From the NCBI GenBank assembly GCA_016840065.1, contig JAEOTB010000003.1, positions 1 to 23,852 of the forward strand: a stretch of 23,852 nucleotides of DNA, read 5' to 3'. Of the stretch, positions 1 to 12,554 are shown piece after piece. Positions within the stretch are counted from its first letter, which is position 1. Each line of letters starts with the position of its first letter. The DNA is from Candidatus Hermodarchaeota archaeon (GTDB lineage Archaea > Asgardarchaeota > Hermodarchaeia > Hermodarchaeales > Hermodarchaeaceae). Under the pieces are notes generated by a model, which worked only from the letters and a program-made list of their open reading frames with translations, did not search any database and had not been told where the DNA came from. Both the position numbers and the translations under genes were made by a program.

Positions 1-296
1 GCAGCAGCTGCTGAAGGAACATCGATTCCTAGAGCGCCACCCAGCTTTTCTTTACTTTCTACAAAAAGATAAGGAACATTCTTCTCTCCGCACAGAGGTG
101 GAAGATGAAAGACAATTTCAGGAGGATCACAATCCTCTGCAATCACAACTAGTTTTGCTATACCTCGCTCGATAGCTTTTGTAGTTTCGTTTGTGCCTTT
201 CCGAACCTTACCAGTATCTCGGGCAACTTCAATTATTTCCAGAGCTTTATCCTGAAGCTCTTTCGGGGCAGTGAATTTAACATGGGGTTTTGACAA
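1..296 (-). CDS. rpl7ae: 50S ribosomal protein L7Ae (eL8), kink-turn binding protein; 3' end runs off the window
   Basis: Not in the ORF track. Manual translation from TTG at 296 gives [69 protein letters not shown]..., with the typical [13 protein letters not shown] motif. SD GAGGTG lies 6 nt upstream. Confidence 0.97.
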
Positions 297-338
297 CAAG
301 AACACCTCATTAAGGGGGTTCATCGGGTCTTGTCGATG
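294..338 (-). promoter_or_regulatory. Kink-turn/k-loop hairpin in the rpl7ae 5' UTR covering the SD and start codon
   Basis: RNA CGACAAGA-CCC-GAU-GA-A...U-GA-GG-UGU-UCUUGUUG: a 3-nt bulge plus tandem G.A pairs, with the outer stem pairing over the UUG start. This matches the known L7Ae autoregulatory leader. Confidence 0.75.
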
Positions 339-390
339 TCAGCCAGCTACTAAGTGGTCTGGCTGGAGAAGAGAGTAGCCCGTAAGATTC

Positions 391-3217: not shown

Positions 3218-4519
3218 TCACTCCAAATAATCTTTCAAATCCACTTCAGGAAAGGGTGCAAGGTCGTAACCAGTTCCTTTCAGTGGCTTGGTAAGGTCAA
3301 AACCCATCTTTGTGGTTAGATGTGTTCCGTGTTCTCCGCTTGGGTCTAGGCTACTGCCTCTTTCCTTCGGCTTCACGACTAGGTCTCGATCACCTTGGAA
3401 GCGCGTGGCCATCGCCCATTCCACTTGGAGGGGGTCATAAATATCGATGTCACTGTCCACCACAAAGACGTGTTTACAGCTGCGGTGCCCTGCAAAGGCA
3501 GCATCAATGGCGCGTTTGCCATCGTCTTCCTTTTGCTTTTCGATTTGAACGATTGCATGAAGCCAGCTACATCCACCAGGATTAATGTTAACATCTAGAC
3601 ATTTCACCCCTGCCTCAACAACTTTCCTAAAAATTGTAGGTTCACGAGGCATACCCATTAACACTTTATGCTCAAATGCCCCTGGGAGTAATGCCTGCCA
3701 AATCGCATCTTTTCGGTGAGTAATGCATGTAACCTCGAAGATAGGTTCTTGACGAATAACATCATAGGTTCCAGTAAGATCCACAAAAGGACCTTCATCG
3801 TGACGTTCGTTTAAGTAGACTCGACCTTCGAGAACCCACTCACAATCTGCTGGGATTAGCAACTCTGATGTCTTTGCTTTCACAACACGGATAGGTTCAA
3901 GGGCATTCGCGATTTCAAGCTCGTTGATACCGATTTCGACCGAGGTTGCAGCTGCTACTAGAATGTTAGGTGAGTTACCAATGCAGAAGGCTACAGGCAG
4001 TTCACCTTTCTTTTCCAGAAACGTGTGAAAGTCCCGACGTGCTACTATTCGTGTACTCATCTTGGCCTTCGAAATCTGCATAGCCCTGTGAAAATCTAGA
4101 TTCTGTCCATAATCCTCATGGGCTGTAACGACAACCGCTGATGAGATATAGGGACCGCCATCACGTTTGTTATGAAGAAGAATAGGAACCTTATCCAAGT
4201 CAACCTTAAGCTCCACTACCTCCTGACATGGAGCTTTCTCAACAACCGTAGGCAGCGACCGTTGTTTGATTGCACGTGTTAAAGTGGGGATAAGGTCACT
4301 AGTGGATATACCTAGATAGGTAGCAATGCTGTCTTTTGTACAAAAGATGTTGCCCATTATCCGATAATCAGGGGTTTCTTTGACATTTTCTAGGAGGATA
4401 GGTCGCGGTTCCACTGCCTTGAGGAGTCCCGCCGCCTCTAATTTCTTTGATACAATATTGCTGACTTTGAGAAGCTGCCCTTCTTTATCCAGCCTTTCAA
4501 TATATCTTCGCAATCCCAT
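3218..4519 (-). CDS. UbiD-family prFMN decarboxylase; probable trans-anhydromevalonate 5-phosphate decarboxylase
   Basis: DGGPYI, FHR, EGPFVDLTGTY, VDSDIDI, WAMATRFQ and GSSLDPS motifs. Substrate is inferred from the position between mvk and AcnX. Confidence 0.85.
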   Translation of the reverse strand: MGLRRYIERLDKEGQLLKVSNIVSKKLEAAGLLKAVEPRPILLENVKETPDYRIMGNIFCTKDSIATYLGISTSDLIPTLTRAIKQRSLPTVVEKAPCQEVVELKVDLDKVPILLHNKRDGGPYISSAVVVTAHEDYGQNLDFHRAMQISKAKMSTRIVARRDFHTFLEKKGELPVAFCIGNSPNILVAAATSVEIGINELEIANALEPIRVVKAKTSELLIPADCEWVLEGRVYLNERHDEGPFVDLTGTYDVIRQEPIFEVTCITHRKDAIWQALLPGAFEHKVLMGMPREPTIFRKVVEAGVKCLDVNINPGGCSWLHAIVQIEKQKEDDGKRAIDAAFAGHRSCKHVFVVDSDIDIYDPLQVEWAMATRFQGDRDLVVKPKERGSSLDPSGEHGTHLTTKMGFDLTKPLKGTGYDLAPFPEVDLKDYLE

Positions 4520-10452: not shown

Positions 10453-10561
10453 GCCGTGGTAGCCTAGCCCGGTAGGGCGCTGGCTTGGAACTGATTCCTC
10501 ATCTGAACCGAAAAGCCAGTGACCATTGGTCTCGTGAGTTCGAATCTCACCCGCGGCGCCA
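10453..10561 (+). tRNA. tRNA-Ser(GGA) with a 23-nt intron at 37/38 (10491-10513) and encoded CCA
   Basis: Acceptor stem GCCGTGG/CCGCGGC, discriminator G, CCA. Anticodon stem CTGGC/GCCAG with GGA at 10487-10489. Long variable arm GACC-ATT-GGTC. T arm GTGAG-TTCGAAT-CTCAC. BHB central helix UUGG/CCGA. Confidence 0.95.
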
Positions 10562-11617: not shown

Positions 11618-11887
11618 TTACTTCTCTCCTTTCATGAACTTTTCAAGCTTGGCAGCTGTAATAGCCTTAATTACAGCTTTATCATCAGCACCAGAATTGA
11701 TTTTAATTTCGTGTTCGGTGGGTGCGATGTGATCCACGTTAGCTCGTCTGCGACGAACTCCTGAAAGACTTTGTGGTCCAGTGACCAGCACGAAGTTCTT
11801 GTCAATACGTTCAACTACAACACACGGTCTTCCCTTTTCACGACCATGCGTCTTCACCACGACTCTACCAACTATATTTACACTCAT
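11618..11887 (-). CDS. rpl14e: 50S ribosomal protein eL14
   Basis: GRVVVKTHGREKG and VLVTGP..SGVRRRRAN motifs. SD GGAGGT supports ATG 11887 rather than 11923. Confidence 0.95.
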   Translation of the reverse strand: MSVNIVGRVVVKTHGREKGRPCVVVERIDKNFVLVTGPQSLSGVRRRRANVDHIAPTEHEIKINSGADDKAVIKAITAAKLEKFMKGEK

Positions 11888-11894
11888 ATCATCA

Positions 11895-11983
11895 ACCTCC
11901 GCCGTTTGAGCGTCAGCACCCATGTCGCCACGAATGCTTCATCCTATTTCCTCGAGGAGGACAAGTAGTTGGCACTCAACAGC
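11895..11983 (-). ncRNA. Structured RNA element with a kink-turn-like core between cmk and rpl14e
   Basis: GAU-GA-[AGCAUUCGUG-GCGA-CAUGGGUGCU]-GA: a 10-bp stem with a GNRA loop, enclosed by an 11-bp stem that ends at the SD. Confidence 0.6.
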
Positions 11984-11999
11984 TATCCAATTAATAAAT

Positions 12000-12554
12000 C
12001 TATTCCGTCAAACCTGAAAAGTTACAAAGGTAATTTTCCACAGCCTCAACACAGATGGCGACGGTACCCTCTGCGTCCCACCTTGCTGTGTTAAGAACCA
12101 GGTCAAATAGCCTGATTGCCCCAACATCGATACCGTAAAAATCCTGAAATCGTTTTTTCTGACTTTCTTCTCTGGCTAGGGTTTCCTCCATCACTTCTTC
12201 AAATGGCCGTTGCTCCCGCTCGGCTATCCTGCGTACTCGCACCTCCAGGGGAGCATACACATAGATCTTAATATCGGCCAAGTCACGCGCAACCCATCCA
12301 GCAATATATGCATCGAGGACAACATCTCCTCTTGCAGCTTCCTCCCTTGTCCTGTCATCGATGGCACGGTCGATTTTATAATCTTGTTCCGCTATCAAAC
12401 CGAACTCAGCTAGTGTTTTATTATGTTCCTCCGCCAGTCGTCGGAAAATCATCCCTGCTGACACATATCGCAAGTCGAATGCTTCTGCCAATGCCCTAGC
12501 GACAGTAGATTTACCAGCGCCATGTTCTCCGCTGACAGCGATTGTGAGAGTCGT
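12000..12554 (-). CDS. cmk: Cytidylate kinase, archaeal type; start probably ACG 12554 (alternative TTG 12575)
   Basis: P-loop SGEHGAGKST, SAGMIFR, IDRAID and RVRRIAERE motifs; conserved position before rpl14e. Confidence 0.92.
   Translation of the reverse strand, partial: TTLTIAVSGEHGAGKSTVARALAEAFDLRYVSAGMIFRRLAEEHNKTLAEFGLIAEQDYKIDRAIDDRTREEAARGDVVLDAYIAGWVARDLADIKIYVYAPLEVRVRRIAEREQRPFEEVMEETLAREESQKKRFQDFYGIDVGAIRLFDLVLNTARWDAEGTVAICVEAVENYLCNFSGLTE

Follow-up and report, generated by a model that had tools for sequence, protein, structure and literature searches.

L7Ae is common to both ribosomal subunits, to the box C/D and H/ACA ribonucleoproteins (RNPs) and to RNase P. What is known of its balance with these partners in archaea is partial and comes from its own mRNA and nop5 in Sulfolobus and from a passing prediction for cbf5 in Thermococcus. 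In S. acidocaldarius, L7Ae represses its own mRNA and the nop5 mRNA, and it binds a kink-turn (k-turn) in the latter (PMC5539422; PMC4247193). When the k-turn within l7ae's 5′ untranslated region (UTR) is folded by L7Ae, the Shine-Dalgarno (SD) sequence is occluded (Daume 2017 PMC5539422, Huang 2019 PMC6298567). Putative L7Ae sites were also noted in the aNOP56 (TK0184) and Cbf5 (TK1509) transcripts of T. kodakarensis (Jaeger 2014 PMC4247193; Daume 2017). Here we analyze the spacer between cmk and rpl14e, 112 nt on the minus strand, in a 23,852-nt stretch of DNA (the window; contig JAEOTB010000003.1, positions 1 to 23,852) from a Candidatus Hermodarchaeota archaeon. An earlier note on this stretch had proposed an undescribed structured RNA in the spacer. 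We are confident that the spacer contains a real, selected, k-turn-containing cis-acting RNA. For its role, the reading that we favor, though we believe and doubt it in about equal measure, is a translational OFF switch that responds to L7Ae and acts on rpl14e and, further downstream, on cbf5.

The l7ae UTR k-turn, described in S. acidocaldarius and A. fulgidus (PMC5539422, PMC6298567), shares with the rpl14e leader a GAU-type bulge, tandem G•A/A•G pairs, a 3b•3n combination that forbids ion-induced folding, a weak canonical (C) helix, and the placement of the SD on the side of the C helix. The rpl14e leader belongs to a different operon. Its non-canonical (NC) helix is 9 bp long, covarying and GNRA-capped, whereas the l7ae UTR has a short loop; its SD lies 11–13 nt from the k-turn and has a dedicated CCUCC partner; its 5′ half often overlaps cmk; and its response to L7Ae is predicted. 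The T. kodakarensis sites are similar in that a k-turn is proposed in mRNAs for the guide-RNP partners of L7Ae, with cbf5 among the proposed targets, but they were merely mentioned, neither described nor shown to be conserved, and the genes beside cbf5 differ. The principle is not new: the leader would add to the L7Ae/k-turn mRNA operators and extend known archaeal control to another operon, with an element that is absent from Rfam. Three features are new, namely the covarying GNRA-capped NC arm, the dedicated anti-SD, and the location of a stop codon inside the k-turn.

Conservation of the leader element

The observations on which we build are the conservation of the element, the covariation of its NC helix, a near-invariant k-turn core, a fixed geometry relative to the SD, and a likeness to known L7Ae sites. 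The host class, Hermodarchaeia, in the phylum Asgard (Promethearchaeota), was represented by 19 species genomes in two genera. Eighteen of them have rpl14e, 4 in the window's genus and 14 in the sister genus. All genomes are metagenome-assembled; family-level counts are samples, and "not found" holds for the searched genomes. When 40 relatives were searched with the spacer DNA, the only matches were in three genomes of the same genus, at 82–86% identity, so that protein-anchored retrieval was needed. Retrieval anchored on eL14 yielded a homologous element of ~95 nt directly upstream of rpl14e in 18/18 class genomes with the gene.

A covariance model made from the class members had one match in each class genome, plus a second match on a duplicate contig in G018. 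In other families, it gave weak full-length matches in six genomes (four families), and every one of them lay just upstream of the rpl14e of its genome. With filters off, a search of 41 upstream regions returned 12 matches with E < 0.003, in families f2 (Odin), f5 (Ca. Asgardarchaeum), f7, f14, and f19. A variant of the element was read by eye in f25 and in all ten f6 genomes examined. The element was found in these seven Asgard families besides Hermodarchaeia, and it was not found in f3, f4, f8, f9, f21 and other Asgard families among those searched. In TACK archaea, the model had no match in 68 rpl14e loci, and a crude scan for GA-flanked hairpins gave noise-like matches only.

In Rfam, no family matched the spacer at the gathering thresholds. 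The E-value search returned only a box C/D model, which scored 10 bits where the gathering score is 60 (E = 4.5). These searches agree with the proposal that the structured RNA had not been described.

The k-turn core and the NC helix

The bulged strand of the k-turn occupies 11944–11938 (features of the leader are all on the minus strand), with G(−1b) at 11944, the bulge GAU at 11943–11941, G1b-A2b at 11940–11939, and A(3b) at 11938. The non-bulged strand, at 11915–11912, consists of U(3n) at 11915, G2n-A1n at 11914–11913, and C(−1n) at 11912. The earlier note had read GAU-GA (11943–11939) and GA (11914–11913) as a k-turn signature. The signature is real and almost invariant across 29 sequences: U at L3 and GA on the bulged strand were found in 29/29, and GA on the non-bulged strand in 27/29. 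The 3-nt bulge is GAU, AAU, GGU, AGU or GUU. The −1b•−1n pair is G-C in 27/29 sequences and A-U in the two f7 sequences, which is a compensatory double change. As in a standard simple k-turn, there are tandem G•A/A•G pairs, a 3-nt bulge with a Watson-Crick −1 pair, and an NC helix that continues from the G•A pairs.

At 3b•3n, the combinations were AU (13), UU (5), GU (4), CU (3), AA (2), UA (1), and AC (1). G was never found at 3n, and 26/29 sequences were of the type that does not fold by itself (neither G at 3n nor C at 3b). A published rule holds that metal ions do not make k-turns of such 3b•3n type fold and that these require a protein. The leader k-turn is, as predicted by this rule, of the kind that needs protein to fold.

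The NC helix (P3; 11937–11916) has 9 bp, 11937–11929 with 11924–11916, and is capped by the GNRA loop GCGA at 11928–11925. The earlier note had placed its arms at 11938–11929 and 11924–11915, and the hairpin is real. Folded alone, it had a free energy of −13.4 kcal/mol (z = −3.15), and 0/200 shuffles were as stable. The opposite strand gave −4.5 kcal/mol (z = −0.24); owing to three G-U pairs in it, P3 folds only on the minus strand. Among the 29 sequences, which came from six families, double (compensatory) changes were seen at 8 of the 9 pairs, and 87.6% of the cells were paired. The number of cells with a double change was 98, compared with 35.9 ± 4.8 in shuffles, and slid controls collapsed. 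P3 was always 8–9 bp long and its tip was always G-GYRA-C, with the loop GCGA in 14 sequences, GCAA in 11, and GUAA in 4. RNAalifold on a MAFFT alignment of the class missed P3 because of indels in the alignment, and returned only the invariant helix of anti-SD and SD. The expectation that P3 and its GA flanks are kept among relatives was thus confirmed: P3 covaries and the GA pairs are almost invariant, and, compared among relatives, both of them and the CCUCC motif go well beyond what chance would give.

The SD of rpl14e (GGAGGU, 11900–11895) is 7 nt ahead of the ATG at 11887 and is invariant in the class. In all families, the SD keeps a fixed distance of 11–13 nt from A1n.

The f6 leaders (L080, L094, L109, L279–L285) have a canonical, covarying C helix adjoining the GAU bulge and a conserved insertion of 6–7 nt between the 3′ arm of P3 and the non-bulged UGA. 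In two f6 genomes, GG replaces GA on the bulged strand.

Proposed fold and action of the leader

We propose that the cmk–rpl14e spacer encodes a cis-acting leader of the rpl14e–cbf5 message. Its functional core would be one long irregular hairpin, with a basal helix between the SD and CCUCC, a weak C arm, the k-turn, and the 9-bp GNRA-capped NC helix. The k-turn would be unable to fold alone, and L7Ae, as its presumed ligand, would serve as the folding protein. The SD would then be occluded in vivo and translation of eL14 turned down. Cbf5 would probably be turned down too, through the 13-nt junction between the two genes.

In the long hairpin, the base before the bulge pairs with the C that follows the non-bulged GA, a weak C arm comes next, and CCUCC pairs with the SD. 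The 3′ strand of the C arm (11912–11901) links the k-turn to the SD. The anti-SD motif UCCUCC (11961–11956) can pair with the SD or within a local hairpin, P2 (11961–11949). The earlier note had pointed to this UCCUC/GAGGA hairpin as a place where CCUCC is hidden; both are present in the window, and the CCUCC motif is conserved in the class. UCCUCC was invariant in 18/18 class members, and a CCUC(C)-type motif was kept in other families. Within the class, the pairing of anti-SD with SD is 100% possible. The long hairpin with the SD paired to CCUCC is the minimum free energy (MFE) structure in most lineages, including the closest relatives of the window's genome (G000), which are G002 and G003. 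In two f6 genomes, the SD variants GGUGAG and UGAGGUGU are matched by UUCACC and ACACCUCA (sequences and folds, by eye). The C helix is canonical among f6 genomes and differs in sequence between them, and it has 3 + 3 bp in f14. The −1 pair covaries in f7. Across families, the long hairpin is the better supported; within the class, the evidence is not decisive. It is plausible that P2, with the anti-SD held locally and the SD open, is the ON state and that the long hairpin, with the SD closed, is the OFF state.

Several points weigh against such a switch operated by L7Ae. In the window itself, the MFE structure keeps CCUCC in P2 and leaves the SD open, and forcing the pairing of anti-SD and SD in the full spacer costs about 9 kcal/mol. 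For the 71-nt core of the window, the P2 fold is favored by about 3 kcal/mol, and the centroid is the fold with anti-SD and SD paired. In Hermodarchaeia, the C helix adjoining the k-turn reaches only 65% pairability, and 15/18 sequences have a mismatch at the −2 position. The helix of anti-SD and SD has no covariation within the class because it is invariant there. One genome (G043) has AA in place of GA on the non-bulged strand, which is a known rare type of k-turn variant (PMC3985660). L7Ae alone does not account for why the G-GNRA-C tip is invariant and why P3 has a fixed length. By eye, and in the single genome G000, the nop5 leader had no obvious k-turn. Finally, the hairpin type of the rpl14e leader was found nowhere else in the genome, so that two leaders are all that supports a regulon.

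This last point comes from a genome-wide scan of G000 for the pattern GA-N-stem-GNRA-stem-N-GA, which had 28 matches compared with 15–26 in shuffles. The only perfect 9-bp case was the rpl14e leader. A 10-bp GA-flanked GCGA hairpin with one mismatch (contig C51, plus strand, 4350–4381) lies inside the 3′ part of an open reading frame (ORF) of 361 amino acids; it is probably due to chance and was dropped.

An L7Ae regulon that links the leaders of rpl7ae and rpl14e–cbf5, as the earlier note had suggested, is plausible from these sequences, because the rpl7ae leader of the same class has a conserved k-loop over its SD and because there is precedent in the literature. The rpl7ae leader of the window (294–340, minus strand) reads ACCC-GAU-GA, about 8 variable nt, and U-GA-GGUG, a k-loop with the SD in its C helix. 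A GAU-GA...GA k-loop over the SD, similar to the signature in the rpl14e leader as had been noticed, was conserved in 18/18 Hermodarchaeia genomes (L249–L266). The start codon of rpl7ae is likely a TTG past GAGGUG rather than the ATG at 323. Linkage to cbf5, which is downstream of rpl14e in 33/40 Asgard loci, is uninformative for a choice between L7Ae and eL14 because cbf5 follows rpl14e whether or not the k-turn is present.

If L7Ae does control the leader, this strongly conserved element, which occurs in several Asgard classes, would be the first well-defined RNA family for the link between L7Ae and its partners. Through it, L7Ae would be tied both to Cbf5, the H/ACA enzyme, and to eL14, which is its neighbor on 23S helix 25. 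The leader would further provide a compact natural OFF switch in which, unusually, a stop codon overlaps a protein-binding motif. The element could enter Rfam and so improve the annotation of Asgard genomes.

Likeness to ribosomal k-turns and a possible role of eL14

In yeast, RPL30 is autoregulated by way of a k-turn that its own transcript carries, and rRNA sites are mimicked by ribosomal-protein leaders of bacteria or archaea. For the rpl14e leader these are analogies only: feedback by an L7Ae/L30-family or ribosomal protein is alike, but they involve a different protein, operon and domain of life.

The best rRNA match of the leader model was KT-33, in helix 33 of 16S rRNA (16.3 bits, E = 0.064), an L7Ae site on the archaeal small subunit (Armache 2013 PMC3553981). 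The core of KT-33 in the same genus agrees with the leader, except at L1, over a stretch that starts with the pair beneath the bulge and ends three bases beyond the non-bulged GA, and GGAGGU then follows at a similar distance here too. KT-33 differs in its 7-bp NC stem, its 7-nt loop and its proper C helix, and in being rRNA, not mRNA. Kt-46 of 23S rRNA resembles the leader in its 3-nt bulge, GA, A at 3b, 8 bp, GNRA loop, GA, and C. Helix 25 (H25) of 23S rRNA resembles it in combining an L7Ae k-turn, KT-25, with a tip that eL14 contacts and that is a GNRA hairpin in Asgard 23S rRNA. However, the k-turns of Kt-46 and H25 have G at 3n, which the leader never has, and are self-folding. H25 is also about twice as long as the leader, with a loop-E-like interruption.

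The likeness to H25 is the starting point of a different explanation, in which eL14 controls its own synthesis, alone or with L7Ae, through a leader that mimics its site on H25. We consider this rather unlikely. In its favor, cryo-electron microscopy places L14e on the tip of H25 and a second copy of L7Ae on KT-25 (Armache 2013 PMC3553981). In the H25 of G002 and G003 (L198 and L196; ~100 nt before the CCGUCUCGAAACACGGG block), KT-25 is followed by a CCUCCGC/GUGGAGG stem, which puts an SD-like GGAGG in the NC helix of an rRNA k-turn, then by a loop-E-like AGUA/GAA internal loop, and then by a GNRA tip. Autogenous control would also give a role to the invariant G-GNRA-C tip and the fixed stem length, which are not needed by L7Ae, and to the restriction of this hairpin type to the rpl14e leader within the genome. 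In two other genera, g38 of f22 (L101, L104) and g23 of f4 (L105, L271), rpl14e is preceded by a GNRA hairpin of 8–9 bp without GA flanks. Its 3′ arm runs into the SD, GAGGUG, and it shows compensatory changes between genomes; the f22 genomes have no cbf5 downstream. Against autogenous control, such hairpin-only variants are rare, and the H25 of Odin 23S rRNA has no GNRA tip, yet the Odin leader has one. The distance from k-turn to tip in H25 is about twice that in the leader, the closing pairs of the tip differ, and the k-turn core is closer to KT-33 than to KT-25. Moreover, we know of no autoregulation by eL14.

Overlap with the 3′ end of cmk

The gene on the 5′ side of the spacer, cmk (12575–12000, minus strand; stop codon TAG at 12002–12000), encodes cytidylate kinase, as identified by Pfam (PF13189/PF02224) and the ORF list. 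In 13/14 genomes of the sister genus, in f5, in f14 and in one f7 genome, the stop codon of cmk is the UGA of the k-turn (L3-G1b-A2b). Where the stop codon overlaps the k-turn in this way, CCUCC encodes Ser-Ser near the C-terminus of Cmk, and the 5′ strand of the C arm lies in the last cmk codons.

This arrangement would suit translational coupling without any protein ligand, in which the hairpin hides the SD of rpl14e until ribosomes that finish cmk melt its 5′ strand, and the k-turn-like motif is structural only. The MFE folds do pair the SD with the region of the last cmk codons. We nevertheless regard coupling of this kind as quite unlikely, since it alone does not require the invariant GA/GA, the U at L3 or the GNRA tip. 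In addition, some versions of the element lie entirely between genes, namely those of the window's genus, of G016 in the sister genus, of Odin and of f6, yet they keep the k-turn, P3 and CCUCC. In one f7 genome, the UGA is read through in another frame.

In the window, the 5′ half of the leader (11986–11939) runs colinear with the final ~48 nt of cmk (12047–12000; alignment A6). Judging from this alignment, this half is probably a relic, a duplicate of the 3′ end of cmk that no longer codes, and what looks like a tandem duplication would have freed the RNA element from coding duty. CCUCC is kept in the non-coding copies and lost in the window's coding copy, which indicates that the motif is held by selection at the RNA level. 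G016 presents an independent uncoupling of the element from cmk.

Binding of both proteins and coupling to cmk could also be combined, in a two-protein mimic of rRNA with a tertiary lock that ties synthesis of eL14 and Cbf5 to free L7Ae, free eL14 and upstream translation. We give this proposal a small probability. The leader would imitate a minimal 23S helix 25, with L7Ae on the k-turn and eL14 on the GNRA tip. The kink, induced by protein, would fold the 9-bp arm back, and the GYRA loop would dock on the CC:GG steps of the helix between SD and anti-SD, which would be at a matching distance on the other arm, and so lock the ribosome-binding site. Where the stop codon of cmk is the UGA of the k-turn, terminating cmk ribosomes would reset the switch.

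The three-way junction and possible internal transcripts

The MFE structure of 11880–12005 is a three-way junction of P1, P2 and P3, as the earlier note had drawn it, with −37.3 kcal/mol (z = −1.99, which is modest; 7/200 shuffles were as stable). In this fold, the 5′ arm of P1 (11983–11973), in the segment colinear with the cmk 3′ end, pairs with the strand at 11912–11901. Upstream, a TATA-like box (TTTATTAA, 11998–11991) is a possible internal promoter. It is present in all 4 genomes of the window's genus, with one base changed in G002 (TTTATTTA); on its 5′ side, no alignable sequence was found among the genomes of the genus. All coordinates of the earlier note, among them those of this box, the arms of P1 and the SD, proved right.

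One could therefore imagine that the three-way junction, with the k-turn at the junction, is the main fold and that it switches between read-through and promoter-proximal transcripts. We think this very unlikely. It does agree with the window's MFE structure, with the TATA-like box of the genus, and with the mutual exclusion of P2 and the anti-SD:SD pairing, by which P2 might serve as the ON state. Within the class, P1 reaches 79% pairability, with double changes at two pairs; however, one P1 pair is mismatched in 17/18 sequences. The support for P1 on alignment A5 is inflated because that alignment was fitted to the model. The 5′ arm of P1 drifts without compensation in the window's genus, and its counterpart in the sister genus consists of cmk codons. 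The register of P2 differs between the two genera, and P2 has no double changes. Known k-junctions place the third helix on the non-bulged strand, while P2 lies in the bulged strand. The closest relatives, G002 and G003, fold as the long hairpin. The P1/P2/P3 fold thus holds as the MFE structure of the window, but P1 and P2 are poorly supported elsewhere. As a conserved fold, the junction was not upheld, owing to the lack of convincing covariation in P1, the shifts in P2 register, and a geometry unlike that of k-junctions. A place for P1 in the overall fold is doubtful.

A further pairing is available in the window's genus, between the strand that follows the k-turn, ACGCUCA, and UGAGUGU in the start-codon region (AUG AGU GU; 11880–11912, minus strand). 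This pairing is the MFE structure for transcripts without the 5′ arm of P1. The start-codon region and the P1 5′ arm share one target strand and hence compete for it. All four members of the genus have kept the pairing, without covariation.

Comparison with guide RNAs

Archaeal box C/D small RNAs are like the leader in that C-box-like and D-box-like motifs (AGGAUGA and CUGA in the window's genus) form an L7Ae-type k-turn, and processing has been raised as an option for leader k-turns (Jaeger 2014 PMC4247193). It is nevertheless extremely improbable that the element is a small RNA of its own, with the role of a guide of box C/D-like or H/ACA-like type, or a site of L7Ae/RNase P processing that is excised from the transcript: no Rfam family matched and the box C/D score was far below threshold, the sister genus lacks the first GA of the C box, there are no C′/D′ boxes, the 22 nt between the boxes are self-paired and leave no guide free, a pseudouridylation pocket and an ACA box are both lacking, the bases after the stem vary (AAAC, AAGC, AGGC, AACC), there is no separate gene, and the element always abuts the SD of rpl14e at a fixed distance. 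The Cbf5-linked, guide-like RNA that the earlier note had offered as its second option was abandoned for lack of a guide, a pocket, an ACA box and C′/D′ boxes. A box C/D register that uses the first GA of AGGAUGA for the GA pairs was also rejected; the sister genus has AA there.

Genes of the locus and other rpl14e leaders

The first gene of the predicted regulated message, rpl14e (11887–11618, minus strand), was recognized by its translation as eL14, with homologs named 50S ribosomal protein L14e. A coding extension of rpl14e from an ATG at 11923 was dropped, the in-frame ATG being absent from relatives. The gene for the H/ACA pseudouridine synthase, cbf5 (11604–10582, minus strand), begins 13 nt past rpl14e and was identified by the Pfam domains DKCLD, TruB_N, TruB_C_2 and PUA.

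A different and larger (~130 nt) structured leader precedes rpl14e in f12 (L084, L106). Its CCAGCA/UGCUGG closing helix abuts the SD, and it has an inner CCCUU/AAGGG hairpin followed by GGCAAC. In the window, an intron-containing tRNA (10453–10558, plus strand; Rfam 47.5 bits), which ARAGORN missed, lies between cbf5 and rps13 on the opposite strand.

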